From positions 36,860-100,859 of the forward strand of contig CAZJZJ010000001.1 in the NCBI GenBank assembly GCA_964550525.1: a DNA stretch of 64,000 nt, given 5' to 3'. The position numbers were made by a program, and so were the translations under genes. Below the pieces are notes generated by a model. The model saw only the letters and a program-made list of their open reading frames with translations, made no database searches and was not told the origin of the DNA. This stretch comes from an uncultured Methanosarcinales archaeon. Its GTDB lineage: Archaea; Nanobdellota; Nanobdellia; Woesearchaeales; JANQNQ01. Shown piece by piece: positions 4,472 through 64,000 of this stretch; the stretch's first letter is position 1, and each line of letters opens with the position of its first letter.

Positions 4472-4521
4472 TTGAAACCAAAAGAGGTGGATTATAGGGT
4501 TTATTCTAGTTTAGAAAGAAA

Positions 4522-6597: not shown

Positions 6598-6601
6598 AAA
6601 G

Positions 6602-7600: not shown

Positions 7601-7647
7601 TAATTACCGAAAAACTTAAATATGCTCAAAAGAAGTATTGATTAAAA

Positions 7648-8604: not shown

Positions 8605-8672
8605 AAACCTTTAAATATGCATAATAATATTATTATTAAGATAATTACAAAAACAAAGAGGAGGTTTAGAAT

Positions 8673-44221: not shown

Positions 44222-44295
44222 TTACGTAGAAACATTTATATATAAGTCTGCCATAAAATAACTCATCCTAGATAATAATATAAAAAGAGGGAAAC

Positions 44296-47200
44296 GTGGT
44301 GAAAAATAAGTTAGCGATTTTATTACTCTTTATTATCATTAGTTTAGTTTCTGTTAGTTTTGTGAGTGCACGTGCGTGTGATAATATATGGAAATGGCGA
44401 AATCATTGGTGTCCTATTGTACCTACTTCAGAAGATTTCCGAGAAGTTTCAATGGATGATGATTTTAATTTCCAGGTATTAAGTATTTGTTATGATGAGA
44501 CCAATACGGGCGTTTATTATACTTATTTTTATCTGGATGAAGATAAAGATGTAAAGTTTTATTTGACTAGTACAGGTTCTGCAGGTGTTAAATTATCTAT
44601 TGATGGCAAAAAAGTAGCTACACACGGGAAAGAAGCAGAAGTCGTTCTTGAAAAGGGATGGCATTATGCAGAGATTGTTATCCGAAGATGGGGGCATATT
44701 AATTTTGATGTAAGCCTTGAAGTAAACGATGGAACATTATCAAAAATAGCCACAAAAGCAGGTACAATGGAAGGATGTGAATGGGACGAAGATAAGGATG
44801 GTTTTGTTGAAGGAGACGATTATACTGAGGATGATTGTGATGATTCTGATCCAACTATCTACCCTTTTAGAATTTTTGAAGAAGAGCCATGCGATGGGAT
44901 ACTTCACGATTGTAAGAATAGGCAAAGATTTGAAATTGATGGCGAGTCTAGAGAAGCTGTCTATAACGAAATCTGTGAGGGTGATGATAATCTTGCAACA
45001 TGTGAAAGCCGTTGTGGTGAGTGGGGTGAAACAATAACACCTGACACGAACAGATGTTGTGGTGATGATAGCATCAGTGAATTTGGTTTAATACAAGAAA
45101 AGAATGATGATGAAACGATTTGTAAAAAAGGCGAAGATTCGTGTGATTGGGGATGGCTAACCACATCAGAGGCAGGTTCAGGTAAGATACTTACTGTAAG
45201 AAGAGATATTGTAAAAAATGAAGACATTATAATGGATAAAAACCGGGAAATAATCAAACAACAAGGCAAAACAAAATTTGTACCCTGTGGTAATTTTTCA
45301 GCCGTAGTTGAGAAATATGGCCCCAATAATTGTACTGTTAATGTAGATTTTGGTGCAATTATATGTGAAAATCCGCCACTCTCAACAGAACTTGTAGAAC
45401 TGGGCGGTCCAAATAAGGATAACTTATCTATAGAAAATGAAGATGGCGTTTACCAAAAAAAGATTGATTTTTATATCTATTTAAATGAAGATATAACAGC
45501 AACAAAGACTGCAAAGATTTCTGCTAAAGCTGACAACAAATTAACATACTTACTTGATGGTAAACAAATCTTTAGTTTTACAAAAGAAGATCTTGCAGTG
45601 TGGGATCAGGAACCAGAAGTCTTTGAAACAGAATTTAAATATGGTAGCCGTGCTGGTTGGCGACACATTAGTTTACTTCTTGATAACTGGGGTGCTTATG
45701 GTGGCCTTGAAGTCTGGCACGAAATAGAGGGTTTTGAGACCCCTATTACAGATGTAGATACTGCAGGAGAATGCGATAATATTATTCCTTTAAGCGAGGC
45801 AGAACCAGTTACTGTACCAGACCCAGACATCAAATCAACAATCTATGATGTTATCCCTTTCAATAAAAAATGGTATGTGTGTGATCCAGAGGGAACTATT
45901 AGGTTGGATCCTGGTTATGGGACGAATATATTGGATGAATTTGATACACCACAGGTAGAGACCTCTACTGCTCTTCAATCAACTATCTCTTTGGATAGCC
46001 AGGGTGCTGGCGATACTGATTCTTATATTGGAGATGGGATTGATATTGATGCTGTTGCAATTGAAGATGCTTTAGAGGGGTTTAGTATTGGAGGTAGTCC
46101 TGTATCTGCCTCTTTAGGGAGTAGTGGTACTCCAGGGAGCAGGAGCAGTACTGAAATTGAGTATGATGCTTTTATGTGTTACAAAGAAGGTGATATGGGG
46201 TCAATTGGAGAATGTTGTGGCAATGATTTAGGTATCTGTTTTAACAAAGGAATATTAGGGCTACCAAAAGTAAGGCGTATGGGGGAGCCGTTATCCTATA
46301 TCGTCGAAGTCCATGATTTAAACAAGAAGAAACACAACACAGTTCTTCAGATACCTGTAAAACATAAAGCACGTGAAGATATTCCACCCTATACCTATTC
46401 GATTCCCGGTGGCGATGTGCCAATTTTACATTATACAAATTGGAAAGGGTTCAAGGCGCTTGAATTCTATTTTGCTTCTTTACGTCCAGCTTTAGTTAGA
46501 CTGATCATTAAAGATACAAATGAAAAAGAACATGATTTTGGTCCAATCCTAAAATACGCTATTGAAAATAAAAGAATAACTGAAGACGGTGAACTAGCAC
46601 CCTCGCAACAGATGCGACACATTTATATTCCTATTGATGGCGAACTCGGGGAAGTAGATAAAGGCAATATCTCTGAGATAATATTTACAGCAAGGAAGCA
46701 AGATCTACCAGCGGACTACATTGAAACAAAGATTATAGACAAAATGGATCGTGAAAGCTACAATGTATGGGTTTTCGATAGAATGCATCTTACCTATGAT
46801 TATGAGACAGAATCTGAAAAAAATAAGTACTGTTCCTTTACAAAGGAATGGGTTTATGACTTTGATGTAGAAGATAATGAAGCAAACCCCATCTGTAACC
46901 AGATACCTTCATTCACTTGGACAGGTACACAATGTTGTGGTGATGATATCGTATATACAGATGAAACATACGAGGATGAAAGCGGTGGCTGCTGGAAAGG
47001 CAACTTTATTGCAGATGATACAACATTGATGGAGATAGAATTTGAACATGATACCTATAACGGAAAACACACAGATATCTGTAGAGGTACAAGATGCGAA
47101 TACCCTATTTTATATCAAGATTGGCCTTCTGAAGTAACTGAGATAGGCGATGTAAGTACAGATTCTGATTTTTATAATGTTAGGATAACAAACACAGAGG

Positions 47201-49101
47201 ATGCAAAAGAAGCAACCATCTCTGTAGAGTACGTACCGCAACAAATCTTGTTTTTCGGTGGTGCGTTTAGAGGCTGTGCTGCAGATGGTTTTGAAGATAT
47301 TATCGATGCTGAACATGAATATGGTTATTGTAAAGTGATTTCAGGCAGCAACCATTTCTGTTCTTATGGAAGTAAGTTTGCTGGTGCTTTTAATAATGGT
47401 AAACCATATTGGAGTTCTGAATCTTCTGGCACAGCTCCTTCTTACCTAAGGAATAATAGCAAAGAGTTACCTGGAGATAACACAGATGATCATTTTGGTA
47501 CAACTGAGATTAATCCAGATCATAATGATAAAGGTTGTTGTCCAGCTGATTATTGTTGGAACGGGACTGTTTGTGTAGAAGGGATAGAAGAACCTTTTAG
47601 TATAAGCAACTATGAATCTAGCCCAGAAGCATTCACAAAAAAGTTTAGTTACAATAATCCAACTGCAGATTTTGACATGTATGTTTGTTACAAAGAAGAT
47701 GCTGTAGCTAACTGGAACAAAACACATTACAAAGAAGATTGGTATGATTCAGCAGATACAGCTGGCAGACGTATAGGTAGAGGTTATTGTATGGATGGTA
47801 GCCAGTGTTGGACAAGTGCTGGTTGTAAAGATAACGGCTGGTATACTAATGAAGAAAGAGGTTATTTCTCTGTAGGCAATGAGATGACTGACCGTTTCTG
47901 TGAAAATGGTAATTGGTCAACCAGGACAAAGCTGATAGCATTAGAGTTACTAAATTTTGTTAAAGATAAAGGGGATTACACCTTGTTTTGTGATACAAAC
48001 AAGAATGCACTTAATTTTTATACAGATTCCTGGAAACCCATAAATGAAGATACTAATAATTTCTGCGTGCTTGTATACAAAGAAAACAATGATGCTGATG
48101 TTGAGAAGAAAGTAGCTGTAGGTACATCATTGAATAAGCCTATAGAGGCGATAAAGCAGGTATTGTTGAACGAAGGCGTATTAAAAGGGGACACAACTCT
48201 TAGTATTTGTACAGATGCACCTGCCACAGAGGACAGTGTCTATGGGACTTATGTAAATTGTGACGGGAGCACCGATGTTGAAGAACAAAAACTCTGGTAC
48301 AATGCAAAAACAGAATCCCTGATCTATAGTGCACATGGTATAAATTTGCAATCTACAACAATCGTTTTTGCAGATTTCATGAACCTGCTTTTCAATCCTA
48401 TCATGGCTTTCACAGACATTGTCATAAATATTATTAGGCCCCAAACGACAGAGAGTCCAACTAATATACCTGTACCTGTTGAATACTGGGATCTATTCCA
48501 GTCAAAGGATTTCAAGACAGTTTATCTGGAAGAAAGCGGCGATATGACTGTAAGGGGTATAATCGAGCAAACAACTAGGGGCAAGAAATATCTTGCTATT
48601 GATTATGAGAATTCTCCAGTGGATATCTGCTCAGCAATCAGCCTGTACAATAAAAAGATAGGTGGGGAGTTTACTTGCCAACCTACAATAAACAATTCAG
48701 TATTAACATATAGGATTGCTTCTGAAACCACAGACATGATAGTCGGTTTCAAGGTATGGAAAGAAATCACTGCAAAGATTAGGTCAATAGATTTTGGAAG
48801 CGAATTAGGTGATACCGGTCCAGGAGCAGTAGTTAAAGATCTAGAAGAAAGCCATTATGCAAGAAAATACATTAAATTTGAAGCTGAAGAAAACGAAGAA
48901 GTTCTTTCTTATTATTGGGATCTAAATGTTACATCGACTGAGGAAGCAATTAACGGAGAAAGGTTTGGCAGGAAGATCACACACTACTATGAAGGGCCAG
49001 GAGATTATACAGTCACCTTAATTACAATAGGTAATGACGGTTCTTACTCAACTGATTCAATAGATATCGAAGTTACTGAAGAACCCGTAACAACTGGTTA
49101 A
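44296..49101 (+). CDS. Giant secreted Cys-rich surface protein 1 (1601 aa) with a cleavable signal peptide, a MopE-like acidic Cys motif, CCGDD motifs and a C-terminal PKD domain
   Basis: It has a GTG start and a GAGGG Shine-Dalgarno sequence at ~44286. The signal peptide is LAILLLFIIISLVSVSFVSARAC. The block CEWDEDKDGFVEGDDYTEDDCDDSDPTIYP lies at ~44776-44865. The motifs RCCGDD and QCCGDD are present. The C-terminal segment YYWDLNVTS...HYYEGPGDYTVTLITIGNDG is a PKD fold motif at ~48830-49098. Confidence 0.7.
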   Translation: MVKNKLAILLLFIIISLVSVSFVSARACDNIWKWRNHWCPIVPTSEDFREVSMDDDFNFQVLSICYDETNTGVYYTYFYLDEDKDVKFYLTSTGSAGVKLSIDGKKVATHGKEAEVVLEKGWHYAEIVIRRWGHINFDVSLEVNDGTLSKIATKAGTMEGCEWDEDKDGFVEGDDYTEDDCDDSDPTIYPFRIFEEEPCDGILHDCKNRQRFEIDGESREAVYNEICEGDDNLATCESRCGEWGETITPDTNRCCGDDSISEFGLIQEKNDDETICKKGEDSCDWGWLTTSEAGSGKILTVRRDIVKNEDIIMDKNREIIKQQGKTKFVPCGNFSAVVEKYGPNNCTVNVDFGAIICENPPLSTELVELGGPNKDNLSIENEDGVYQKKIDFYIYLNEDITATKTAKISAKADNKLTYLLDGKQIFSFTKEDLAVWDQEPEVFETEFKYGSRAGWRHISLLLDNWGAYGGLEVWHEIEGFETPITDVDTAGECDNIIPLSEAEPVTVPDPDIKSTIYDVIPFNKKWYVCDPEGTIRLDPGYGTNILDEFDTPQVETSTALQSTISLDSQGAGDTDSYIGDGIDIDAVAIEDALEGFSIGGSPVSASLGSSGTPGSRSSTEIEYDAFMCYKEGDMGSIGECCGNDLGICFNKGILGLPKVRRMGEPLSYIVEVHDLNKKKHNTVLQIPVKHKAREDIPPYTYSIPGGDVPILHYTNWKGFKALEFYFASLRPALVRLIIKDTNEKEHDFGPILKYAIENKRITEDGELAPSQQMRHIYIPIDGELGEVDKGNISEIIFTARKQDLPADYIETKIIDKMDRESYNVWVFDRMHLTYDYETESEKNKYCSFTKEWVYDFDVEDNEANPICNQIPSFTWTGTQCCGDDIVYTDETYEDESGGCWKGNFIADDTTLMEIEFEHDTYNGKHTDICRGTRCEYPILYQDWPSEVTEIGDVSTDSDFYNVRITNTEDAKEATISVEYVPQQILFFGGAFRGCAADGFEDIIDAEHEYGYCKVISGSNHFCSYGSKFAGAFNNGKPYWSSESSGTAPSYLRNNSKELPGDNTDDHFGTTEINPDHNDKGCCPADYCWNGTVCVEGIEEPFSISNYESSPEAFTKKFSYNNPTADFDMYVCYKEDAVANWNKTHYKEDWYDSADTAGRRIGRGYCMDGSQCWTSAGCKDNGWYTNEERGYFSVGNEMTDRFCENGNWSTRTKLIALELLNFVKDKGDYTLFCDTNKNALNFYTDSWKPINEDTNNFCVLVYKENNDADVEKKVAVGTSLNKPIEAIKQVLLNEGVLKGDTTLSICTDAPATEDSVYGTYVNCDGSTDVEEQKLWYNAKTESLIYSAHGINLQSTTIVFADFMNLLFNPIMAFTDIVINIIRPQTTESPTNIPVPVEYWDLFQSKDFKTVYLEESGDMTVRGIIEQTTRGKKYLAIDYENSPVDICSAISLYNKKIGGEFTCQPTINNSVLTYRIASETTDMIVGFKVWKEITAKIRSIDFGSELGDTGPGAVVKDLEESHYARKYIKFEAEENEEVLSYYWDLNVTSTEEAINGERFGRKITHYYEGPGDYTVTLITIGNDGSYSTDSIDIEVTEEPVTTG

Positions 49102-49172
49102 TTCTTTATCCACATAAAAAACACTATATTTATATATTCTTTAACTTAATTTAAAACTTAAAAGAGGGGAAA

Positions 49173-52100
49173 ATGGTAAAGAGGTCTCAGATTACTATGT
49201 TTATGCTACTTGGGATAGTATTGTTAGTCATATTTGGGTTCTTATTCTTCACATCGCAGGTTGTTAATAAGATGAGAATCCAAAAACGTGTTGAGCAGAT
49301 CAGCACAGATATTTCACAGACCTCTGTAGTAAAAGATTATGTGACCCTTTGTTTAGATAAAGCAGCAAAAGAAGGATTAATACTTCTCGGCGGCCAAGGT
49401 GGCTCAATCTATGCACATCAAGGCGGCACAATCAATAAAGATGAAGCAATACCTTTCAGACTTCAACATTACGGTACAGAAAGAGATTTTGAAGTTGATT
49501 TAAACATTAAGAAACCTGTTGCAGGTGAATCACCTTGGATCTTTCCACCTGATTATCCTGTAGCTTATAGGTTGTTGGCTGTGGATCATAGGTCTTTATC
49601 TGTAATTGACAGCCTTTATAGCAGCCGCAGCTTGTATGGTAATCTTAGTTTATCTCAATTGTGTGATCGTGAAGGTCCAAACAAATTTGGTGGCAGATTA
49701 TCAACATGTCATGAAAATTTTTACGATCGTGTAGGACAAATCATATCTATTCAAGAACAGCTTTCATATTTCATTGCAAACTATACTGAAATGTGTGCAG
49801 ATTTCTCTACATTCGCAACATTGTTTGGTTATAATGTAAGTTTGGATCTTAGTGCAGGTGATGTAAAATCGACTGTGACACTTGGAGAAAAAGATGTTGC
49901 TATAGATCTTTTGTTTCCGCTTGTTGTAAGGGTTGAAAACTATGTTCCTGTAACTAAAACAATCTCATTTACAACCAGAGTACCTGTAAGACTAAAAAGA
50001 ATCTATGGTTTGGTTTACTTTATTACTCAATTCGATTCAAGAAGCATATTCTTTAACGCAACATCTAGACATAACATATCTCTGATTGGAGCACTGTGTA
50101 AAGATGCAGATGACAAACCTGTAGATTGTCTAGACCAATCAATGTCTATTGTAAAATATAAAACCGTCTGCAGACTTTGTGAAAAGAATTATACAGATGT
50201 AATCCAGATTATTGATAGAGCTTCAAACCTTGCAGGAAACCCTTATATTTTCCAATTTGCAGTAGAAAACAGGAACCCTGCTTTGGATTACATCGGCCAG
50301 GCAGTAACAGACGAAGAATTAGCTAAAGATTATGACGTGTTTTATTCTTACAAACGTCCGATCGAACTAACACCTAAAGCAGAAGACCCTGACGAAGATA
50401 CAACATTTTTTAGTTATCATGGTTGGAAAGCAGATTATGAAGAACAATGGGGAGTTACAGCAGATAATAGTGTAGAGATTATCAAAACCCCTCTTACTCC
50501 ACCAGACCAAAACCAATGGCATGCTTCAGATCCATATCAAAACACAAGAAGAGATGCAACCATACAATTGACAGATAAGGACATTGGCCCTCATAATGTA
50601 ACTATAATGGTTAAAGATGATGAAGGCTTGTGGGATTCTCAAAAGATCCGTATGGTTATATACGATGATCCAGATCTACATAGCAATGGTACAAACATGT
50701 ATGATGATATAGATGATGACCGTGGATCTATTGAAGATCCTTACGTCTTAGATGCGCGAAGAGCCGGTACTATACTTGGCCAGATAATTTCTAATTTTAG
50801 GGTTGATTATGAATGGAAGGATCTTTTTGAAGGCGTACAGCATGGTCCTGTAAGTACTCCACGATACATCCTACCATCTGATGCTCCTGATATTATTACC
50901 ATCCCTCTTGAGTCTTTCAAAAGAGATTTCTTCGAAGAAAAATTAGCAACCACACCTGCTCCTCAGAAACATGAGATCTTGCTTAATAGTCTTTTGTTTG
51001 GTCAAGGTGGCGCAGTTGCACAAGAAAAGGTGGAAGTTGATGTATACAAATGCCTTCCGCATAGAAACTCAAGCTACTCTTATCCTTTCCATCTTTATTT
51101 TAAGCAAATGGACCCGTTCCAAGCTAACCATACTTGTTGTAAAGATGGGATAGATTCATGGGGTACAATCGTTGGAAAAAACGAGAATAAAGAATGTTTT
51201 AGATTAGAAGAAAGCATGGATGGGTACTATATGTGTGGTAGACCTATTCAAGATACTTTTTATCCTCCTGCAAAAGAAGGAGCATATGCATTAAAGAATA
51301 CTTCGGCCGAATTCAAAAGAGACGAGAGCAACTACCCAAGTGGTTCTGCTGGACAGAATGATGTTTATAAAAGAGAATTCACTGTAATGTGTGGTGGTGA
51401 AAGAGGTAATATCTGTAACGGTACTTCAAAAGATATATGGGAGATTGTGAATCCAACTGGGTGCACAGATCTTGTTGACGGTGGCCAGGATGAACGTTGT
51501 AAAGGTTGTGACAGATATGGGTTAAGCAACCCCAGAGCCGGATGTACTGTATATCCGCCAGGCAAAACATTTGAATCTGTAAATAAAGATGCACTAGGTT
51601 TGACTGGCACAAGAGCAGACGGTATATGCAACAACCATTGGAAATGTACAGATAACGTAGATGGGAAATATTATGATCGAACACAAGACACAGAAGAAGT
51701 AGAATTCATAGCACAAGCATTTTGTAAGGATGGTGTTTGTAAATTTGTAAAACACCCTTCTGAAACACATAACGGAAATATTGTAACCCAATCCTGTGAT
51801 TCGTTTGATAAGTATGAGGCACTAGGTAGTCCACCTTACACTAAACGTGCAACTACTTATTGTGTAGAAAAATCAACGATACCACCTGGTTCACTTACAG
51901 ATAGCTCCATTAAACCAGAAACATTCTACGTAACCAGAGATTATTATTGTTCAGCTAATTCAGATGCAAACCAAGACGATAAATGTGCTTTTAGGTACGT
52001 AGACCTAGAATCACTTGATGGTACACGGAAGTGGTGTGGTGCTTGCGCTAGTAAGGGTGTTGAACTTATTAAAGCAGGTGAAACTGGTTTAGGTGGTTAT

Positions 52101-53345: not shown

Positions 53346-53348
53346 AAA

Positions 53349-53972
53349 ATGGCAAAAAAACAAATCGTGGATTACATTCAGGAAAACTGGGATAAAGGTT
53401 GCGATATTAAGGAGATTAAAGAGAAGCTAGTTAATTCTGGCTACTCTGATGATAATATTCATGAGGCAATCGATCATATGTTTAAGACAAAGAAACCTAG
53501 ACGTAAAGTATCTTACAAAAGGATTTTTTTAGTGTTGTTCTTAATTGTTTTAGTTGTTTTTATCTCTTATTTTTCTATAGGTTTCTTTAGGAACATGGTT
53601 ACACAGACAAAGCAACCAACAATGTTACCTGCAGAGTGTGAACTTGAAGATATTAAACAAAAAACAGAGTGTTTTATTGATTCAACTATAGAAAACGGAA
53701 ATCCGGAACTATGTACTGCATTGGAAAAAACAAAAAACATCTGTCTTCTTGCTTTTGTAGAAGAAACCTTGGATAGCTCTGTTTGTAGTATGATGGATAT
53801 GGAATATTATGAAGTAACATGCAAGGCTATAATCAAAAAAGACCCCTCTATCTGCGATAAACTAGAGAAAGCAGACGCATGTTACCTTAAAATGGCGGAA
53901 TTCTTGGAAAATCCCTTACTTTGTTCTAAAACTGGTGTTTTTGAAGAGCATTGTAAAAAAACATTGGGTTAA
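53349..53972 (+). CDS. Small bitopic membrane protein: N-terminal cytoplasmic domain, one TM helix, extracellular Cys-rich (10 Cys) domain
   Basis: It reads MAKKQIVDYIQENWDKGCDIKEIKEKL..., then TM IFLVLFLIVLVVFISYFSIGFF, then a C-terminal domain with regularly spaced Cys. It is embedded between the giant genes on the same strand, 4 nt after the stop of giant 2. Confidence 0.5.
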   Translation: MAKKQIVDYIQENWDKGCDIKEIKEKLVNSGYSDDNIHEAIDHMFKTKKPRRKVSYKRIFLVLFLIVLVVFISYFSIGFFRNMVTQTKQPTMLPAECELEDIKQKTECFIDSTIENGNPELCTALEKTKNICLLAFVEETLDSSVCSMMDMEYYEVTCKAIIKKDPSICDKLEKADACYLKMAEFLENPLLCSKTGVFEEHCKKTLG

Positions 53973-54114
53973 ACCAAAAAGCTTATAAATGCAAACCCCT
54001 ATTTTCAATTAAAAAAAGGTGTAGGGTGTATTTGGTTTTTATAGACGTGAGTTGCCTCACTTAGTTATCATTTTCATTAATGAACAGTAATGTAAATAGA
54101 AAAGGGGAATATTA

Positions 54115-57100
54115 ATGCCTAAAAAGAGGTTTTTGTTACTTGGAATAATAATGTTGGTTCTTCTTTCTATTTCTGTGTATGTAGTTGGTGAAGGTTGTTG
54201 CGCTAGCCCTGAAGAAGGATGTGTTATGGTTGTAAGCTCTAATGATTGTTCTGGAACCTATAACGATGGGAAAGCCTGTTTTGATGTTGATGTTTGTGAT
54301 GAGGGCTGTTGTGCGTATATGCTTAATGGAGAAAAAGAAGGATACCCAGCTATGGAGAAAATTAGTTGTGAACAAGAGTACAGTGGAACATTCTATCCAA
54401 TAAGTGAGTTTGATCCTGGCGATATAGTATTTGGAGCTATCACTAGTGATGCTTGTAAAGCTAAAGCAGGTGTAGCCCCTGATACAGCAACTGCTTGTAC
54501 AAAGACTGGATGTAATGACGCAGAACCTGGTTGTTGGTGTGGCAACCGTAAAACAGAAGATGATTTTGCTTATTGTTGTGCTAATAATACACTTGGTTTT
54601 ACTACAACCTTTAAGACAAAAGAAGAATGCCAAGCTGCATGTAATCTTGTTTCAACAGTTTACTCTGTCTCAGGCAAGGTAAAAAGGAAAAGCGATGGGA
54701 CAGTTCTACGTAATGCTCTTGTTACAGATGGCACAAAGCTGGTTAAAACTGATGCAAGCGGAAATTATAAAATATACGGATTGTCTGCAGGAACACCTAG
54801 TCTCAAGGCTTCTAAAGAGACATTTGCAGATGTTACTCAAAGTGTTACAATCTCTAATACTGATCTTGAAAATATAGATTTTGAACTAGTACCTCAAAGA
54901 TGTGACGCTGAAAAACCTAGAGCAGAATCTGATTGCGACTGTAGTGGTAATGGTGTATTTGACACATTAGTTGGTTGGTATTGTTGCCAGTATCCAGATG
55001 GAAGGAGTGTTGTTTCTCAGACTAAGCCTTGCGAGAATTGCACTAATCGTATTGATGATGATGAAGATGGGAACATTGATTGTGACGATCCAAAATGCAC
55101 AAAACCAGTTTCGTCAGTACAATGTAAAGAGTATGTATGTAAAGCTGAAAAACCTTGGGAACTGGAAACAGTTGGTGATGGTTGTTTACAGGATACAGAT
55201 TGCACAGGTAACAAGGTTTGCCAAAGTTGTAATTGTGTAGATCCAGGCGAAGAACCACCTACAGGAACAGTTGAGATTTGTACAGATGGGACAGAAGATG
55301 AGGATGGTGATGGGAAGGTTGATTGTCTAGATCCTGATTGTTTTGGTAAAGCCTGTAAGCTTCTTACTGATGGTTGCTGTGGTTATTCAGATCAAACAGG
55401 GGAACAAGCATTAGGTATATGTTGTCCAGATAACCAATACTGTAGTATTGATAAAACTGGGACAGGTGGTAATCCTGATGGTAATCCTGATACATGTTGC
55501 CAGTATGCTCCAGACCAGGTCCAGGATTGTGATGATCCTCAGGACGGGTTCAAAGAAACCTGTGCTCTATCTTGTAATGAATGTGAATACCGTTCTTGTA
55601 AAGTGGATAACTCTGAACATTTTGGTGAAGGTGTAGATTCATGCTTATGTACACCTGGGTATTCTGCAACAAAAGAAAACCCGTTTTGTTGTAGGATACA
55701 AAGTGGACAATCTGCTTTTGAGAATAGTTCTGAATGTTATCTGCAGACTTTATGTGATCCTGATTGTCGTTGGGATAATGTACGCAGTATTGAATATTTC
55801 TTAGATGAGATGAATTATGATAAATGTGTTTGTCAAGGTTCAACAAGAACTCAGGGGTTTTGTTGTAAGAATGGTTTGCATTCTAATACAGCAGATGGGT
55901 GTGCAGTTGAAGAAGGTAAGTATACCATCTCAGGTAAAGTGACAAAGCAAGGAACAAACAGCCCTGTTTATGGTGCTGTAGTCACACTAACGAGTAAAGG
56001 TAGATCTTATCAATCTTTACCTACATCAACGAGCGGCACATATGCAATTTCAGCTGTAGAGCCAGGAAAATACTCTGTTTCTGTTGCAGCTTGGTGTTAT
56101 GAAGAAAAAAATCTAGAAACAAATATCTACAGGAACGAGGAAATTAATTTTGAGATTAAACAAATGCAAAACTTCCCTGTAACCGGGTTTGTTACAGATA
56201 AAGAAACAGGTGATGCAATCAAAGATGCAACAGTAACTTTTGGAGATAGCTTTTCTATAAAAACAAATAATCAAGGTAAGTTTACTAAATCTGCGGTCTG
56301 TGAAGGTGAGTACCAAGTTAAAGCCTCTGCAGAAGGATACGGTACTAATAGAACTAATGTGCGTGTAACTCAAAGAACCACAGTAACTTTTGAACTTTCA
56401 AAGGTACAATGTTATTATCCAGACCTCAGACCTTCACCAACATTGCTTGATGTAGCTCATGCAAGAGCTGAAAAACTTACTATCACCTGGGAAAACGATT
56501 GTGAACCAGAGGATTTCACCATCTACAGATGTGAAGGTGAAGATTGTAACAGTGATTACGATCCAGTCTCTGGTAAACTAAGCCCAGATACTACAGAATT
56601 CGAAGATACAACTGTCAAACCAAACACGCATTACTGTTATGTTGTTAGTGCGTTTTATTTACAAGACGAGGATCTGTTTGGTTCTGGTATTCATAATTCT
56701 CAGAAGAAATGTATGGCAACAGGTGATGAGCTTTGCATGAAAACAGATACAGAACAATTCTGTGTTACAGGAGATAATGATGTAAGTTGGGTTTCAAGCT
56801 GTAACGCAGATAATGAGGTTGAGAAGGAGATAAATTGTCGAGAAGATGAACCTTATGGTGAGGATTTTGTATGCATGGGGCCTGATGATTTTGGTGATGC
56901 ACATTGTAGATATAAAAGTAAATGCGTACAGTGCGGTACACCTTTTAGTATGTTTTCAACAAAGTCATTTGGTTCAGTCCCTTATGGTAAACGAGATATA
57001 CCACAAGTGTGCCAACAGATACCTTATTGTTATTATGATTACTCTGATACTACTGCTGATCAATTCTATGAATGCCAAGGTATAGAATCCTGTTATGATT

Positions 57101-60100
57101 ACAGATCGCAGAAAGCTTGCGAAGAAGATGATACTGCCGAGACTATACAGAACAACAAATGTTTGAACAGGAATTGTACCTGGAATCCAGATCCAAGGTA
57201 TGGTGCACTCGGTGTAGGTATTTGCGCAGAAAAGGATGAAGAATTTCAGAACTGTAGTCTTTGTGACAATGAAGATGGATCAAATATGTTCAGGAAATGT
57301 GATAGGACAACCTGTGATTTGTACGGTGATTGCTATTATGATGCTAGTGAACCAACTTGCAGAAACAAACGCGATATGGCATGTATTTATTATGCTACTA
57401 AAAATGATTGTATAGGTGACCAAGAGGTTGTTATAAACGTCCTGGTTGATGGTGATCAACCAAGCCTTGAATACAGTGAACCGCAAAATTCTGTTCACAA
57501 AGAAAGCCATGACTTAAAGCACCTAGGCAAGTGTAAGTGGCAGGTAGCAGATATTTCAGCTGGAGGTTATTGTTATAAGGATGCTGACAATAATTCAGAG
57601 GAGGATTGTGAGGAAATTGGAAAAGGCATCATTAATACAATCTGTGAAAAAGATAATGAACCACCAGTAACTTCAATCCTACCAAAAATTCCTGTTTTAA
57701 AGGATGCAGTGTTCAATGTAACTGTAGAAGACAATAATCCAGATGCAGAAATAGAAACATATTTCTGTAATGTCTCTGGTAGTTGTGATAATGTATGTTA
57801 CCCAGATATCTTGGCAACTGAAAATCAAATCTACAAAGAACTCCAGGATGGTCAACAATGTATCTACTATTATTCTAAGGATGATGCAAATAATCTAGAG
57901 GTTGCACAGAATATTGGTTTTAAACTAGACAGTACACCTCCAAATATCACTTACGAGGATTCTCATAGAATCTATAAGATAGTTAAACAAGATGGAGAAG
58001 ATGAGTATTTGACAGACTTAACAGTTGCGATAAATATCTTAGATGAAGAAGAGGATGTTTCTTGTGATTTTGTACTTAAAAACACCAATGATGAACCTAC
58101 AGATACACCTGCTTACGAAGAATTTAAGTCGGTTGGTTTTGAGTTCTCTTTTACTAAAGAAAGGTTAGCAGACGGTTTTTATGACCTTTTAATAACATGT
58201 ACAGACCACCTGGGCAATGTTGCAGAAGAACAAGGCTTAATAAGAACAAGTTCAGATAATAGGCTCTTTGATCCGCTTCCTTCAGATACACGCAGTGAAA
58301 ATACAGGTATACTTTTATCAGTACATACCCAAAACTCAGCAGAATGTAGATGGGATACAGAAGATAAAGAATTCTCAGAGATGGAGTTAGCCAGCGAGGT
58401 ATTTGATATGGAGGGAAAAGCAGATACTGATTATCTACATACCTATACTCTTGATTTACCAGATGAGATTGCAAAGACCATTATTCTTTTTGTTAAGTGT
58501 AAATTCACAGAAACAGGAGAGATTGTAGGTAATGATGGAGATATCATCAGATTTACAATAGATATGCAAGAGCCTGAGTCTTTCTTATTGAAACGAAAAA
58601 TTGATGAAGAGGATTATGATACAGAGCAATGGTTGAAACCAACAAACCAGGTTCCGTTTAAGATAAGGTGTAGAGATAAAAAAATACTGGATCCTCCTGG
58701 AGAGTTTAAATGTAATGCAAATAGTGTTCATTATTGCGAAGGTTATGGTTGTACCCCTTTGCCTAAACAAGGCACAGTAACAGGGAAGATAACAGACTAC
58801 ACTCCATCTAAAACAGAGAACCTGCCAATCTATGCATGTTATTATTCCAAGGATGCAGGAGGTAACCCTGAACAACCCACTTCAACCTGTTTCTTGCAAA
58901 GGCTTGATGGTGCCAGCCCTCTTGTAGAAAACCTAGAAGTGGATGTAGTGGGCGACCTTTCTATTAAACAAACTATAGGAGCAATTGAATATGATGTACC
59001 TATAACAAATCAAAATTCAGTAGATGTTAGCGGAGAAGTAGAGAACGTGGTTATCTATGATACTAAAGATGGAGAACTTGCTCCAGGTAAACTATATGAT
59101 CTAAGCCTTTCTAATTATAAGGTTAAACTTGCTTTTGAGATTGAATATGCAGGTACAGTTAATAGACATTACGAATTAGTGCGTTTTGGTTACCATGGGA
59201 AGAATGGTGAGTATTATAAACTTATTCTAGATAGATCAGGAGAACCTAAATTACGTCTTAGGAGCTCTGATCCAGATGCAGTTGGTTGGGAAGAAGTGGC
59301 ATTATTCACTTTTGGTCCTGGCAGTTACGTGTTAACAATTGCACAGCAAGGTAAGGCTATAGGGTTTGATCTTGATAGCGAAACTAGTAGCGGGTCAGTT
59401 AACTTTGTAAATTTCAAGCAAGCACAATCCCACAGTAAAATAGGTATACCTCCTACAGACAGCCCAGAACATGGAACAGGTTTGAGTGTAACCTATGATA
59501 CCATTAAAATCATTGCTGATGATCTTTCTTCACCAATTACAACAACAGTATTAAAACTTAATGGTGAAAATATCCCTGCAGATATTACCTTAACTAACAA
59601 TCAATTTACTCACCAAGGGCTTACATTAGAGCAAGAAGGCCGCAACATAGTTTCCTTAGAGGTAGTTGATGAAGCAGGCAACTCACATTTGGAATCAACC
59701 TATGTTATACGAGATACAACAGGGCCAGTGTTTAGTAGGAAGGAACTTGTACAGGATGAATGTAGTGTAAAAAGAGCTTATCTTAAAGATGGTGATGACC
59801 TTGGTGGAGATCATATAAAACTCGAATACAGTTGCCCTGCTAAACTTACAGTAGAAGCTGAAGACACAGAATGGACAAATGAAGTCAAGAAGATTCAAGT
59901 TAATCTTGAATGTTTAGAAAACTGTTCTGCTGACATTAACCTAGGAGATATGACTAAAGCTGAAGGCTCTTTTAGTGTAGATGTTGATAACATTGATGCA
60001 GGAAGATACAAAGCAGTAATACATGCTTTCGACGCTTTAGATAATCTAGGTGAAACAAACTTTACTTTTGTAGCAGTGGATTCAATTGAACCAGCGTTTA

Positions 60101-62487
60101 ACATATCTATAGTCTATCCAGAAGGTTATCCTTATGAAGGTGTTCTTGTGCACAAGTATAATGGGCAGACACCTATGGAATACGAAGTTATTATTGAATC
60201 CAATGAAAAGTTAAGTGAAACTCTTCCTAAACTAACTTATTCCTGGGGAACATCTATGGACGAGGTAACCGGGTTAGTAAAAGAAGATGATAACACTTAC
60301 ACGGGTAAGATAACTATCGGCCGTAAAGGGCTACTTTATTTTGAGATTGATAATAAACCAGCAGAATTTAGTATTGAATGCTTTGATAAGCAAGGAACTA
60401 AAGGTACAAGGATTGATGAAGGTAAGGACTTTATCATCGATACTAAAGGCCCAGAAGCCCCTGTTAAGGATTATCCAACAGATACAATCATATTTACACA
60501 GAACCCTGTTTTGATAGCAGGCCATGAGATAGTAAAGATGCCTAATTACAAGATCTATATCTATGCTAATGACGAAGTTGTTGATTCTAATGATCTGCAG
60601 CGCTTTGATTCTTGGTCTTATGATGATCATTATGAACTCAAAAGCGGAAATGTGTCAGGGATACATAATGACAAAACTTTTGTAGCTCGTGATTATACTG
60701 CTAATGAAGGAGATAAACAAGAAATTATCTTTAAGCCACAAGTTAGTTCGTTTGGCCAGGGTTTGTTTAAGCATATTGAATTTGAGAATCATCCTTCTCC
60801 AGATGTTCTGTATTATAATATCACAAGTGACCTTGTGCAGGATCCGACCCACGAAGAAACAAAACTAGAAATAACTCCTGCATTAAAAACAGATATCCCA
60901 GCTGGAACCAAGGTTTTCTTGCATAATACCACAAAACCTCAGGGATATTTCCACCAGCAGATAGATCCGCCTGGTCCAGAAAAAACAATGCACCTCTATT
61001 TCCAGGCAGAGGACGAACATGGTTTAAAAGGTGATGTTTCTGAAAACCTTCTGACAATTGTGTTTGACCAGGTTCCACCATTTGTTGAAGAATTTGTACC
61101 TGCAGATGGTTCAGTAAGCAGTGATGATGTGGAAAAAGTGACAGCCAAAATCAAGGATGCTTATTCTGGTATTGATACAGGTACTGTAATACTTTCAATC
61201 AATGATACTGCATACAAATGCGGAGCTGGGATTACTTGTAAATATGTTGGTACAAGTAACAGAATAGTTACTTTGGAGCTAACTAAGGATCATGATCGGG
61301 GCGACTATAACTGTTCATTAGAATTTCATGATAAAGCTGGCAATTACTTCAAACACACATCATCGTTTGAGGTTTCCGATGAGGTACCTGCACACCCCAC
61401 AATTACTCTATCAGGTGGTGTAGAAGCCTATAACACTGGAAAAGGTGAACCATATTATCTTTATACTTCAACAAAAACACCAACCATTACACTTAATTTT
61501 GAACGTGGTGAGTTGGATAAAAAGATTCAAGTAGTCAAAGCCGAGATAGTGGATAGCTCTAATATTAAACAGCCTGCTTTAACTATAGAAAGGAAAGGTG
61601 ATAGGGAGTTTGAGTTAAGCAACATAGACCTAGATGAAGGTGTTTATACTCTACATCTAGAAGCTAAAAAAGAAAAAGCAGACGGGGTTTACTGGGACAA
61701 ACTTGGTATACTGACTGCTACCATTTTTATCGATACAACCACTCCTGAAATAACTCCAGACGCAATTATCACAAGCGAAATAGAAGATATAAAAATAACT
61801 GGATCATATGTTGAAGCAAATCTAGAGGGGATAAATCTAAGCTCTCCTACTACAGGCGAGGGGCTTCTTGGTGATGGAACAGTACCTTGGGTTCCTATAG
61901 AGAATACAGGTAAGTTTGAGATAATAACAGATTTTGCAGGATCTGATTCACATGGCACAAGAACCCTGGAATATACTATATTTGATAAAGCAGGCCATAC
62001 TAAATCTACAACTGTAACAGCAACAGTAGATAAGAAAGGGCCTGGTTTAACTATAGCTGATGTTACTGCAGATTATCCCGAGGGCAGTGTTAAGAAGATA
62101 TCTGAATTGAAATATACAACTGGCGGTAACGTTACTATTAGAGCAAATTATTCAGATGAAACAAATGCAAAAAGTGTAGATATCTTAGATACAGATACAA
62201 CCTTGGAACTTGGAGATAAAAAAGGTGAATTTAGTATTGGCATTAAAGTTACAGCAAACAAGAATGTTACTTTTGTAATTAAAGATTCAGCAGATAACTC
62301 TATAAATCACACAGTTGAACTTATTTTTGATACAATTGGTCCAGAAATAATTGGGGAAGATGTTACAATATCTGGTGGCGGTGGTTCAGCAGTATTATCA
62401 AATGAAGAATCAAGAATGTTATCTACAGCAAGGATTATAGGAAATGAAGATATTCAGAGCAAACTTCAAGATGCTTTAAATAGATAA
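54115..62487 (+). CDS. Giant Cys-rich surface protein 3 (2790 aa), with multiple beta-sandwich domains (carboxypeptidase-regulatory-like x3, FN3-like, LamG/ConA-like, Ig-like) and MopE-like motifs
   Basis: It has a signal sequence or anchor LLLGIIMLVLLSISVYVVG and a dense run of CC dicysteine motifs (GCCASP, GCCAY, YCCANN, YCCQYPDG, GCCGYSD, ICCPDNQYC, TCCQY, FCCRIQ, FCCKNG). Three repeats follow of the type SGKVxxxxDGTxLxxAxVT...GxYxIxxLxxGxYxL. MopE-like blocks CENCTNRIDDDEDGNIDCDDPKC and CTDGTEDEDGDGKVDCLDPDC lie at ~55027-55341. Confidence 0.7.
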   Translation: MPKKRFLLLGIIMLVLLSISVYVVGEGCCASPEEGCVMVVSSNDCSGTYNDGKACFDVDVCDEGCCAYMLNGEKEGYPAMEKISCEQEYSGTFYPISEFDPGDIVFGAITSDACKAKAGVAPDTATACTKTGCNDAEPGCWCGNRKTEDDFAYCCANNTLGFTTTFKTKEECQAACNLVSTVYSVSGKVKRKSDGTVLRNALVTDGTKLVKTDASGNYKIYGLSAGTPSLKASKETFADVTQSVTISNTDLENIDFELVPQRCDAEKPRAESDCDCSGNGVFDTLVGWYCCQYPDGRSVVSQTKPCENCTNRIDDDEDGNIDCDDPKCTKPVSSVQCKEYVCKAEKPWELETVGDGCLQDTDCTGNKVCQSCNCVDPGEEPPTGTVEICTDGTEDEDGDGKVDCLDPDCFGKACKLLTDGCCGYSDQTGEQALGICCPDNQYCSIDKTGTGGNPDGNPDTCCQYAPDQVQDCDDPQDGFKETCALSCNECEYRSCKVDNSEHFGEGVDSCLCTPGYSATKENPFCCRIQSGQSAFENSSECYLQTLCDPDCRWDNVRSIEYFLDEMNYDKCVCQGSTRTQGFCCKNGLHSNTADGCAVEEGKYTISGKVTKQGTNSPVYGAVVTLTSKGRSYQSLPTSTSGTYAISAVEPGKYSVSVAAWCYEEKNLETNIYRNEEINFEIKQMQNFPVTGFVTDKETGDAIKDATVTFGDSFSIKTNNQGKFTKSAVCEGEYQVKASAEGYGTNRTNVRVTQRTTVTFELSKVQCYYPDLRPSPTLLDVAHARAEKLTITWENDCEPEDFTIYRCEGEDCNSDYDPVSGKLSPDTTEFEDTTVKPNTHYCYVVSAFYLQDEDLFGSGIHNSQKKCMATGDELCMKTDTEQFCVTGDNDVSWVSSCNADNEVEKEINCREDEPYGEDFVCMGPDDFGDAHCRYKSKCVQCGTPFSMFSTKSFGSVPYGKRDIPQVCQQIPYCYYDYSDTTADQFYECQGIESCYDYRSQKACEEDDTAETIQNNKCLNRNCTWNPDPRYGALGVGICAEKDEEFQNCSLCDNEDGSNMFRKCDRTTCDLYGDCYYDASEPTCRNKRDMACIYYATKNDCIGDQEVVINVLVDGDQPSLEYSEPQNSVHKESHDLKHLGKCKWQVADISAGGYCYKDADNNSEEDCEEIGKGIINTICEKDNEPPVTSILPKIPVLKDAVFNVTVEDNNPDAEIETYFCNVSGSCDNVCYPDILATENQIYKELQDGQQCIYYYSKDDANNLEVAQNIGFKLDSTPPNITYEDSHRIYKIVKQDGEDEYLTDLTVAINILDEEEDVSCDFVLKNTNDEPTDTPAYEEFKSVGFEFSFTKERLADGFYDLLITCTDHLGNVAEEQGLIRTSSDNRLFDPLPSDTRSENTGILLSVHTQNSAECRWDTEDKEFSEMELASEVFDMEGKADTDYLHTYTLDLPDEIAKTIILFVKCKFTETGEIVGNDGDIIRFTIDMQEPESFLLKRKIDEEDYDTEQWLKPTNQVPFKIRCRDKKILDPPGEFKCNANSVHYCEGYGCTPLPKQGTVTGKITDYTPSKTENLPIYACYYSKDAGGNPEQPTSTCFLQRLDGASPLVENLEVDVVGDLSIKQTIGAIEYDVPITNQNSVDVSGEVENVVIYDTKDGELAPGKLYDLSLSNYKVKLAFEIEYAGTVNRHYELVRFGYHGKNGEYYKLILDRSGEPKLRLRSSDPDAVGWEEVALFTFGPGSYVLTIAQQGKAIGFDLDSETSSGSVNFVNFKQAQSHSKIGIPPTDSPEHGTGLSVTYDTIKIIADDLSSPITTTVLKLNGENIPADITLTNNQFTHQGLTLEQEGRNIVSLEVVDEAGNSHLESTYVIRDTTGPVFSRKELVQDECSVKRAYLKDGDDLGGDHIKLEYSCPAKLTVEAEDTEWTNEVKKIQVNLECLENCSADINLGDMTKAEGSFSVDVDNIDAGRYKAVIHAFDALDNLGETNFTFVAVDSIEPAFNISIVYPEGYPYEGVLVHKYNGQTPMEYEVIIESNEKLSETLPKLTYSWGTSMDEVTGLVKEDDNTYTGKITIGRKGLLYFEIDNKPAEFSIECFDKQGTKGTRIDEGKDFIIDTKGPEAPVKDYPTDTIIFTQNPVLIAGHEIVKMPNYKIYIYANDEVVDSNDLQRFDSWSYDDHYELKSGNVSGIHNDKTFVARDYTANEGDKQEIIFKPQVSSFGQGLFKHIEFENHPSPDVLYYNITSDLVQDPTHEETKLEITPALKTDIPAGTKVFLHNTTKPQGYFHQQIDPPGPEKTMHLYFQAEDEHGLKGDVSENLLTIVFDQVPPFVEEFVPADGSVSSDDVEKVTAKIKDAYSGIDTGTVILSINDTAYKCGAGITCKYVGTSNRIVTLELTKDHDRGDYNCSLEFHDKAGNYFKHTSSFEVSDEVPAHPTITLSGGVEAYNTGKGEPYYLYTSTKTPTITLNFERGELDKKIQVVKAEIVDSSNIKQPALTIERKGDREFELSNIDLDEGVYTLHLEAKKEKADGVYWDKLGILTATIFIDTTTPEITPDAIITSEIEDIKITGSYVEANLEGINLSSPTTGEGLLGDGTVPWVPIENTGKFEIITDFAGSDSHGTRTLEYTIFDKAGHTKSTTVTATVDKKGPGLTIADVTADYPEGSVKKISELKYTTGGNVTIRANYSDETNAKSVDILDTDTTLELGDKKGEFSIGIKVTANKNVTFVIKDSADNSINHTVELIFDTIGPEIIGEDVTISGGGGSAVLSNEESRMLSTARIIGNEDIQSKLQDALNR

Positions 62488-62490
62488 AAA

Positions 62491-64000
62491 ATGAAAAAAA
62501 AGAGGTTAATCTTATTTTTTGTACTAATTTTATTAGCTTCAATCCCTGTATATTCTTGGTTACGTACACATGAAATAAGACCCAAGATTACTGTACCTTT
62601 TACAGAAGAAGCAACTATCATGAGTCCAGATACATTAATCTTTGATCACCAAACAGAAGAGCTTATTGCTGTTGTGTATGAACCAGAGTCAGGCCTTTCA
62701 AGAGAGTTTAATTTCACTTTAGCTGCTAACGAGGAAGCTCTTTCTGACGGTTTCTATACGCTTTTTGTTAAAGCAAAAGATGAGTTGGGCAATATCCTGA
62801 CTGATGAGATTGTTTTTGAAATTGATACAAGTGCACCTGGACTCGATAGGGTTATACTTATCCCTACAGAATTACATCCAGATACAATTATTCTATCAAC
62901 CCAAGTGAGCCGCTCTATCTTTAATTCAGATTTTAGTATAGATCTACTTTTTAACGAAACTGTAAATCTGACAGAGGTTTCTATACAGGGTGGAAGCGAT
63001 CCTCAAATTCTTACAACAGCCTTCAAAACGAAATCAGGCGGTGCAGGAGTTATGACTACACTTGAAGAAATAGATGATGGGAAACAAATACTCTTTGTGA
63101 AAGCAGCAGACCTGGCTGGCAACATTGTCTCAAAGAGATACGAATTTTTTGTGAATTCAGAACCAATCAAGATAAAAATTGTAACTCCAAGACACGGTGT
63201 AGCTATAACAGATACATACAACGTGACAATTGAGGTTGATGAAGATGGTGCAAAATGCAGGTATTCTTTCTTACCTCCACAAACATTTATAGAAATGGAA
63301 GAATTTGGAAATGTCCCTGGTAGTAATAGGAGGTTCAATAAATCGGGGATTACAGGTTCATCTCCATTCTATGTGTGGTGTAACGATTCTATGGGTTCAA
63401 TCAATAATGCAACTTTTGATTTTGTTGTTGATAAAGAAGCACCAATAGTTAACTTAATCCTAGATCCAGCAGATTACAGTTCTGGTTCACCTATAGTAAC
63501 AGAAAAAACCCTTACTACAAACCTTAAAGTTTCTACAGATGATAAAACCATCTGTAAATATAGTTCAACTACAGCAAACTACTCTAAAATGCAACCCATC
63601 ACACCCTATGACCCAGATGATGCTGAAGCTTTCAAAACCCAGCATACCCAACAACTTAGTGATCTTGAAAATGGTAAAACCTATACTTACTTTGTTGTAT
63701 GCGAACATCTTGGTGGTTTGTTATCCAGTGCGAAATCTGTAACATTTAAAGTTGATATTACAGCAGGTCCGCAGATTCTTATTAATGCACCTAAAGGAAC
63801 AACCAATAATAAAAATATTTACTTTAACATAACCACAAACAAAGATACAACATGTACTTATTGGATAAATGAAAGCGATGTTAAATCTGATGGTACATTT
63901 AATGCTGAAGGGAAACATCACGTAAGCGCGAAAAACACGGTCAAAGAAGGCAGTTACAAATATTTTATTCAATGCATTTTTCTTAAAGAAGGCGCAATAA
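62491..64000 (+). CDS. Secreted protein 4 (more than 503 aa; runs off the right edge of the window) with tandem Ig-like beta-sandwich repeats, each carrying a conserved C-x-Y
   Basis: It is not in the ORF track because it has no in-window stop. A manual translation from ATG 62491 shows no stops to 64000. The signal peptide is MKKKRLILFFVLILLASIPVYSW. Repeat units of ~95 aa carry KCRYSF, ICKYSS and TCTYWI. It starts 3 nt after the giant 3 stop. Confidence 0.6.
   Translation, partial: MKKKRLILFFVLILLASIPVYSWLRTHEIRPKITVPFTEEATIMSPDTLIFDHQTEELIAVVYEPESGLSREFNFTLAANEEALSDGFYTLFVKAKDELGNILTDEIVFEIDTSAPGLDRVILIPTELHPDTIILSTQVSRSIFNSDFSIDLLFNETVNLTEVSIQGGSDPQILTTAFKTKSGGAGVMTTLEEIDDGKQILFVKAADLAGNIVSKRYEFFVNSEPIKIKIVTPRHGVAITDTYNVTIEVDEDGAKCRYSFLPPQTFIEMEEFGNVPGSNRRFNKSGITGSSPFYVWCNDSMGSINNATFDFVVDKEAPIVNLILDPADYSSGSPIVTEKTLTTNLKVSTDDKTICKYSSTTANYSKMQPITPYDPDDAEAFKTQHTQQLSDLENGKTYTYFVVCEHLGGLLSSAKSVTFKVDITAGPQILINAPKGTTNNKNIYFNITTNKDTTCTYWINESDVKSDGTFNAEGKHHVSAKNTVKEGSYKYFIQCIFLKEGAI

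Follow-up and report, generated by a model that had tools for sequence, protein, structure and literature searches.

Little is settled about how DPANN archaea such as the Woesearchaeota bind to their partner cells and exploit them; to our knowledge no member of the Woesearchaeales has been cultured with a defined host. In another DPANN group, the Nanohaloarchaeota, the giant SPEARE surface proteins of Hamm et al. 2019 presumably mediate host contact, and a single chain reportedly unites serine protease, adhesion, and restriction-endonuclease domains. The 64,000-nucleotide (nt) stretch of archaeal DNA analyzed here (the window) ends in five open reading frames (ORFs), four of which encode giant surface proteins (G1, G2, G4, and G5) and one a small membrane protein (M3). 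In contrast to SPEARE, no protease or nuclease family was found in any of the five. We read this region, with a probability of about 0.55, as one half, the one that encodes the giants, of a conserved cluster of Woesearchaeal genes for a surface adhesion structure related to type IV filaments.

The general concept of large adhesin-like proteins and class III (prepilin-type) signal fusions tied to type IV filaments is already known. Modular type IV pilins and tip adhesins, such as Streptococcus sanguinis PilB and PilC (PMC8179133) and the minor-pilin/PilY1 complexes, share with G2 a pilin-type N-terminus joined to adhesion modules, lie likewise near small pilin-like genes and large non-pilin partners, and have a presumed role in adhesion. 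The G2 family differs from them in being archaeal and, at 1000-1900 amino acids (aa), several-fold larger; no vWA domain, lectin, or PilY1 beta-propeller was detected in it, its residue +5 is Phe rather than Glu, and assembly genes are unlinked. In the Sulfolobus bindosome (PMC3047682), functional extracellular proteins that bind sugars have class III signals and are presumed to be built, with small pilin-like proteins and by BasABC and BasEF, into a surface structure; M23, SLT, GDSL, and TPM enzymes are joined to pilin-like N-termini in a comparable manner in relatives of our locus. The cargo here, however, consists of giant adhesin-like proteins and wall hydrolases instead of solute-binding proteins, in a DPANN lineage and in other protein families, and no ABC transporter or Bas homolog was seen. 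Archaeal type IV filament loci, as described by Makarova et al. 2016 (PMC4858521) and in a preprint (bioRxiv 10.64898/2026.04.22.720090), often carry large Ig-rich and Cys-rich adhesin-like or S-layer-like proteins as well as class III-signal proteins with functional domains. They describe a similar combination of big secreted Cys-rich beta-sandwich proteins with multiple pilins, in which one partner often has a C-terminal transmembrane (TM) helix, whereas what defines the loci they treat is a neighboring ATPase and platform gene, both absent here. Text searches of the two sources found no description of the G1, G2, and G4/G5 families or of the arrangement of four giants after RNase P p30.

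The five ORFs follow one another on the + strand and sum to 6491 aa, in agreement with the approximately 6500 aa given in a preliminary description of this DNA, whose coordinates hold. G1 (44296..49101; 1601 aa, GTG start) is followed by G2 (49173..53345; 1390 aa), M3 (53349..53972; 207 aa), G4 (54115..62487; 2790 aa), and the 5' part of G5, which runs from an ATG at 62491 for 503 codons and is still open at the window end at 64000. A metagenome contig from JGI (L038) overlaps the window by 13,176 nt with 0 mismatches and carries equally intact ORFs. Hydropathy gives one hydrophobic segment per protein, at the N-terminus of the four giants and at residues 52-85 of M3; this upholds the N-terminal signals or anchors proposed for the giants, and the Cys contents of G1, G2, M3, G4, and G5 (3.0, 5.5, 5.3, 4.3, and 1.2%, respectively) match their portrayal as Cys-rich. 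The spacers G1/G2, G2/M3, M3/G4, and G4/G5 measure 71, 3, 142, and 3 nt, and not 3-70 nt as had been stated. A GAGG(G) Shine-Dalgarno sequence had been ascribed to every gene; it is clear, as GAGGG, before G1 and G2 only, with AAGGGG before G4 and none found upstream of M3 or G5.

The feature of G2 that bears most directly on its possible function is its N-terminus, which resembles a class III signal in a motif scan and in the family alignment. Residues 1-31 (49173..49265, + strand) read MVKRS followed by QITMFMLLGIVLLVIFGFLFFTSQ (also given as MVKRS followed by QITMFMLLGIVLLVIFGFLFF): the short, basic leader ends in Ser at position -1, with Gln at +1 and then approximately 22 hydrophobic residues, and a prepilin-peptidase site is predicted after Ser5. 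By Kyte-Doolittle hydropathy, the only hydrophobic segment of G2 spans residues 1-34. Within the family, the pattern [KR][KR][G/A/S]-Q-[ILVM]-[TS]-x-F followed by approximately 20 hydrophobic residues is the best conserved short element of the alignment, and the consensus KK[G/A/S] followed directly by QITxFxILGIV is present in 133 of 150 Met-starting representatives. Among these 133 relatives, position -1 is Gly in 71, Ala in 41, and Ser in 21, and the leader has a median length of approximately 6 residues; Gln occupies +1 in 133 of 134 anchored family members. Most representatives without the motif are calls that begin inside the hydrophobic stretch and are thus N-terminally truncated. A six-frame scan of the entire window returned only two matches to the class III motif, G2 and the distant ORF 3266-4471. 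Methanococcus pilins similarly have leaders of 5-13 aa, ending in Gly, and a conserved Gln at +1 that may be required for processing by EppA (PMC3875500).

Behind this N-terminus, AlphaFold2 (AF2) models of G2, built from only 11 sequences, display a long N-terminal helix (residues 3-49, with a predicted local distance difference test score, pLDDT, of 70-90, and residues 51-75), an alpha/beta domain that extends to approximately residue 310 and whose best-predicted parts reach a pLDDT of 75-91, and cadherin/Ig-like beta-sandwiches at approximately 320-625, with a Cys-dense C-terminal half. Foldseek searches with the model returned tandem cadherin/Ig adhesins (such as protocadherins, SiiE, and SraP). 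G2 has no Pfam match, and searches of PDB sequences with G1, the G2 profile, or G4 gave nothing useful. In one relative (L027, 2534-3355, - strand), the N-terminal domain occurs by itself as well: a short, 273-aa paralog of it, encoded upstream of the main cluster, begins with the pilin-like sequence GQVSLFFIIGLILAV.

A word-indexed homolog search found merely 7-11 relatives of G2. An exhaustive search with a hidden Markov model (HMM) of the G2 N-terminal region showed that the family is large, with 1023 cluster representatives reaching E≤1e-30 and 4572 reaching E≤1e-10; of the best 150 matches, almost all are close to full-length, in proteins of approximately 1000 aa. Scanning one genome per species yielded 33 loci with G2 relatives at 24-32% identity (labeled L001 onward). 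All G2 relatives come from metagenome-assembled genomes (MAGs) of Woesearchaeota/Nanoarchaeota, some under differing auto-generated 'TPA_asm' titles, which fits the small-genome, DPANN-type archaeon that had been proposed as the source. BLAST of all locus ORFs recovered the order G1-G2-G4-G5 in approximately 15 genome loci (for example, L006, L008, L015, L016, L018, L021, L025, L027, L031, and L036), with G1 homologs upstream of G2 in approximately 20 loci and G4 homologs after G2 in approximately 15. The RNase P p30 gene often lies directly 5' of G1, and a Memo-like gene sometimes lies between G1 and G2. Longer stretches of the window order are retained in L005 (MCM-HTH-IscS-NifU-PP-loop-Rpp30-G2) and in L019 (ThiI-PP-loop-Rpp30-G1-G2).

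Identity to the window copies is 20-32% for the giants and 41-67% for the neighboring housekeeping proteins, apart from a short partial ThiI match (35%) and Rpp30 (29-42%). This combination of synteny, low identity, and HMM counts indicates that the giants are fast-evolving members of large, vertically inherited families that lack a Pfam model. Hence they are not orphans without a nameable family, as they had first appeared, nor are they an island or a strain-level innovation: they occupy a fixed position after RNase P p30 that is inherited across the order. Horizontal acquisition was considered and rejected, since the GC content of the giant region (approximately 36-38%) equals that of the remaining window and the housekeeping context is conserved.

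In these relatives, the giants are accompanied by small proteins that share the KK[GAS]Q start, two to four of which lie between G1 and G2 (L004, L018, and L026) or after G5 in the genome loci; in L015, L016, L027, and L036, members of three families that we label sP, f16, and f17 stand consecutively right after G5. Scanning metagenomes for f16 brought up at least 169 relatives, and a G4/G5-like giant lies directly 5' of an sP-f16-f17-n3-n4... series in 30 of the 38 metagenome loci that have at least 3 kb of upstream sequence. The metagenome arrays after G5 comprise 10-14 successive + strand genes with pilin-like N-termini, a count that uses a looser motif rule in which Gln at +1 is not required; by the same rule, 88-100% of the members of every array family carry the motif, against 0% in large neighboring housekeeping families. 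Proteins of the n4 family, with the consensus KKG followed by QGLSLNTIIIAAIVLIVLVVL, a length of approximately 100-140 aa, and frequent multi-copy occurrence, look like a major pilin.

Some array proteins join a pilin-like N-terminus to hydrolase domains. The n6 protein of L058 (10180-12549) contains Peptidase_M23 (3.6e-23), SLT (3.3e-19), and GDSL (2.2e-8) modules; other n6 proteins keep the region of one of these modules by BLAST, and the array proteins at L078 18686-19741, L116 10190-11203, and L099 19242-21074 have M23, SLT, and GDSL domains or one of them. From their domain content, the L058 protein and its kin would be peptidoglycan-degrading enzymes on a pilin-type anchor in a DPANN archaeon. 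A TPM domain is carried by one n5 protein. At their far end, the arrays give way to housekeeping genes that were assigned by eye, without a Pfam scan, as NuoE/F-like and RPA-like.

The remaining giants appear to be structural. G4 (54115..62487, + strand) consists of a signal peptide, a GCC motif, Cys-rich modules with two acidic double-disulfide-like repeats, three CarboxypepD_reg stretches, a second Cys-rich block at approximately 860-1180, and, toward the C-terminus, a long series of Ig-like (Big_13-type) domains. The earlier claim of three carboxypeptidase-regulatory repeats and Ig-like domains was borne out by Pfam (PF13620, E=4.6e-33; PF13715, E=2.5e-22; Big_13 also matched): two transthyretin-like domains stand in tandem at 55927..56397 (+ strand, residues 605-761), and the third lies near residues 187-260. 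Matches to the NCBIfam models acid_disulf_rpt and OmpL47 barrel are sub-threshold. A conserved G-C-C directly behind the signal peptide is seen in nearly all G4-family proteins (54115-54220, residues 1-35 in the window; homologs L002-L036), with the variants EGCCASP, GCCINP, AGCCFD, and ACCLYP.

G5 (62491..64000, + strand) begins with a signal peptide and Ig-like Big_13 domains (E=1e-12), and BLAST identifies it and G4 as paralogous rods of Ig-like domains. Contig L038 lengthens G5 to at least 880 aa, still without a stop codon, and adds four acidic repeats of the form C..DGxDNDxDG..D..DPGC; a homology search with this extended version gave no matches, probably since the acidic repeats saturated the candidates. 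By regular expression, C..DGxDNDxDG..D..DPxC repeats number one in G2, two in G4, and at least four in G5, and the corresponding model NF033662 stays sub-threshold in G2 (23.3 bits) and G4 (29.1 bits) against a cut-off of 41. In all five C-complete G5 homologs (L006, L015, L016, L027, and L036), a TM helix lies 150-250 aa before the C-terminus, with a Lys-rich tail behind it, whereas no C-terminal TM helix is present in any G1, G2, or G4 homolog; hydropathy likewise gives none for G4 of the window. Because its complete homologs have a TM helix near the C-terminus, G5 is probably a type I membrane protein and the anchor of the set, the window copy ending before that point. The earlier statement that no giant has a C-terminal TM signal therefore stands for G1, G2, and G4 and cannot be upheld for G5, of which only an incomplete copy had been seen.

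G1 (44296..49101, + strand) is a secreted, Cys-rich giant whose sole hydrophobic segment, residues 1-29, corresponds to a signal peptide. It contains three CCG[DN]D motifs (CCGDD/CCGND, at residues 254, 640, and 880), a motif also carried by G2, and WTGxxCCGDD is kept across the G1 family in a 24-member alignment; a literature search on CCGDD or acidic double-disulfide repeats found nothing specific. The conserved core spans approximately residues 620-1500. The PKD domain previously placed at the C-terminus is only a weak, sub-threshold match (PKD_4, E=4.7e-5, 23.8 bits against a Pfam threshold of 27). Many G1-family proteins close with the motif [YF]W..[LI]T...R[IML][KRQ], which may be a conserved interaction strand; in the window copy, this end motif (FKVWKEITAKIRSI) is internal (48742-48786, residues ~1483-1497), with the extra PKD-like domain behind it. 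In a subgroup of loci (L013, L014, L001/L011, and L033), the place of G1 before G2 is taken by a giant of approximately 2100 aa that contains a subtilase-like GHGTHCAG motif, a conserved secreted protein of approximately 400 aa follows G2 on the opposite strand, and G2 terminates in a conserved ...DCLVxVxI. The genes up- and downstream in L001 were tried as G1 and M3 homologs and rejected (E>0.1).

Across 24 G1-family and 25 G4/G5-family members, Pfam detects structural and adhesion modules only: PKD, MopE-type Cys motifs, TSP3, cadherin-like, CarboxypepD_reg, Big_13, SdrD_B, and SpaA. The MopE-type family PF11617 is significant in 4 of the 24 G1-family members, and not in G1 of the window. 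No enzyme domain was found by Pfam or NCBIfam in G1, G2, M3, G4, G5, or the 49 homologs, and the proteins agree with their characterization as extracellular and adhesion-type, built from beta-sandwich and Cys-rich modules; the FN3-like and LamG/ConA-like segments that had also been named were undetected by Pfam in the window giants.

The following assembly route would accommodate these observations. G1, G4, and G5 would be exported through ordinary signal peptides, and G5 would be held in the membrane by its C-terminal TM helix, as in its homologs, to form a TM-anchored stalk. Prepilin peptidase would cut G2 after Ser5, leaving Gln+1 and the long hydrophobic helix, which would either keep G2 in the membrane or let small pilin-like proteins carry it up with them into a short pilus or pseudopilus. 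Such partners are encoded directly 3' of G5 in relatives, from which we infer their presence in this genome. G2 would thus act as a giant, modular pilin-like adhesin, with G1 and G4 as secreted partners retained by protein-protein contacts. The beta-sandwich rods and the disulfide and acidic-repeat modules would form stiff, oxidation-stable stalks offering adhesive surfaces to a partner cell, with rigidity provided by the disulfides and by the acidic repeats, which probably bind Ca. Since M23, lytic transglycosylase, and GDSL esterase domains are joined to pilin-like proteins in the array of relatives, the assembly may also open a bacterial cell wall. In its furthest form, the proposal is an undescribed DPANN organelle, a type IV filament-derived pseudopilus or stalk with disulfide-stabilized giant adhesins and pilin-anchored M23, lytic transglycosylase, and esterase enzymes, with which Woesearchaeota would dock on a bacterial host and breach its wall locally; this we offer tentatively, as a somewhat doubtful extension.

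We hold the mechanism with moderate confidence: G2 is called pilin-like from its N-terminal motif and gene context, and not from homology to a known pilin family. Several results weigh against a filament-related role. Both G2 and the family consensus QITxF have Phe at position +5, and not the Glu that is conserved in bacterial and Methanococcus pilins; that Glu is absent from Sulfolobus pilins and not universal in archaea (PMC3875500). No curated pilin, archaellin, or pseudopilin profile in Pfam or NCBIfam matches G2 (best, PF13400 Tad, E=0.085), and none matches the small pilin-like proteins, for which the best hits, UpsB (E=0.018) and GspG (E=0.055), are, like the Tad hit, far below the cut-offs. 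The mean pLDDT of the G2 models is only 53 and 62. No prepilin peptidase, assembly ATPase, or platform gene was present among the approximately 55 window genes scanned, none of these was recognized beside the arrays of relatives, and tblastn queries with f16, f17, and the small pilin-like proteins gave no homolog within the window. Moreover, a [KR][GAS]Q sequence at the start of a TM segment could be an uncleaved signal anchor.

This last point is central to a reading in which the giants are independent, fast-evolving adhesins or surface antigens without a common assembly, KK[GAS]Q is a signal anchor, and gene order is kept by co-regulation alone. The contrast between the 20-32% identity of the giants and the 41-67% of their housekeeping neighbors would suit such proteins, as would the modular domain content that varies between homologs and the negative pilin HMMs. 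We nevertheless judge it improbable, given that gene order is retained across many species at 20-30% identity, that approximately 89% of over 130 divergent members have kept the motif even as the remainder of the N-terminal region drifts, and that the motif marks the adjacent array families and 0% of housekeeping families. The main alternative, which we hold to be unlikely, is an ordinary S-layer-like envelope in which G5 is the anchored stalk, G4, G1, and G2 form the canopy in the manner of SlaB/SlaA, and the G2 N-terminus is merely a membrane anchor. A fixed chromosomal place beside housekeeping genes, inherited across the order, speaks for an S-layer, and the purely structural beta-sandwich modules, the C-terminal TM helix in G5 homologs, and the presence of the S-layer protein SbsB among the Foldseek matches are in line with it; the preprint bioRxiv 10.64898/2026.04.22.720090 also notes that some adhesin-like components of type IV filament loci resemble S-layer proteins. 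The partial match to the Kustd1514 S-layer glycoprotein model (NF052345), however, scores 63.8 bits where the cut-off is 1400 and covers only the CarboxypepD_reg region, no archaeal S-layer Pfam family matched the window giants, and four proteins totaling more than 6500 aa far exceed typical S-layer subunits. An S-layer would also leave unexplained the prepilin-type motif and the 10-14 pilin-like genes and hydrolases after G5 in relatives. The two roles may overlap and are not mutually exclusive.

It is highly improbable, finally, that the giants serve delivery or act as toxins in the manner of polymorphic-toxin/teneurin or SPEARE proteins, with a catalytic effector for use against a host. The Cys-rich repeats are weakly similar to the teneurin C-rich domain and to MopE/TSP3-type motifs, a subtilase-like giant precedes G2 in the GHGTHCAG subgroup, and hydrolases occur elsewhere in the cluster of relatives, yet neither the five proteins nor their 49 homologs gave a match to a protease, nuclease, toxin, RHS/YD, or other catalytic family, and the enzymes of relatives reside on separate small pilin-like proteins instead of on giants. 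We retain the filament-related adhesion structure as the favored account.

M3 (53349..53972, + strand) is a single-pass membrane protein by hydropathy, with an N-terminus of approximately 55 aa that is predicted to be cytoplasmic, a TM segment at 52-85, and an exterior domain with 11 Cys; no Pfam family matched it. It had been proposed as an embedded membrane partner of the giants. Of 37 loci, just two (L007 and L023) have a homolog, and there it is on the opposite strand, which places M3 outside the conserved set and led us to reject it as a core component.

A TATA-box-like sequence, TTTATATATAA, was read at 44235..44245 (+ strand), approximately 50 nt 5' of the G1 start, and is a possible archaeal promoter for the cluster. 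The M3-G4 spacer (53973-54114) carries a second TATA-like sequence, CTTATAAAT, at ~53983-53991, an indication that a separate promoter may serve G4-G5. The window as a whole is archaeal chromosome, with genes for MCM, Cdc6, RFC, PolD, FEN1, tRNA-intron endonuclease, Hjc, TFE, and RNase P p30; IscS, NifU, ThiI, a PP-loop ATPase, and RNase P p30 are encoded directly 5' of G1. The PolD large subunit DP2 is distributed over two ORFs, 30664-33270 and 33483-34214 (within 30664-34214), and Pfam catalytic-domain positions ~100 to 185 are uncovered. As the second frame is open from approximately 33231 and overlaps the end of the first ORF in another frame, DP2 looks frameshifted, through an assembly error or in reality, and not cleanly split.

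The only window ORF besides G2 with a class III-like N-terminus, ORF 3266-4471 (401 aa), begins with KKRG followed by QQGGGAAAVLVALIGLFVVLYII. It is followed by a 691-aa ORF without a Pfam match and then by three paralogous secreted/lipobox-like ORFs (6569-7600, 7648-8604, and 8673-9656; mutual identity 26-28%), the whole region spanning 3266-9656. This paralogous trio recurs approximately 8 kb 5' of G2 in L010, where two members share 39-41% identity with those of the window.

In the literature searched, we did not find the order-wide module of four giants, the pilin-like G2 family of 1000-1900 aa, or the hydrolase-bearing array of 10-14 genes in Woesearchaeota. The candidate prepilin-type N-terminus of G2, its putative link to the pilin-like array, and the likely C-terminal anchor of G5 go beyond the preliminary description, whose suggestion of host interaction remains plausible, and is strengthened by the cell-wall hydrolases in the cluster of relatives, once its framing as an island is dropped. 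What had been hypothetical giants become a defined, order-wide gene module, in which the G2 family by itself counts more than 1000 representatives and lacks a Pfam model. This module offers a possible assembly route, via prepilin peptidase and the type IV filament machinery, and a predicted membrane anchor, G5; if the proposal is true, G2 would be by far the largest known pilin-like subunit. The peptidoglycan hydrolases of relatives point to bacterial rather than archaeal partners, and the module may serve as a marker for finding host-interaction loci in metagenomes.

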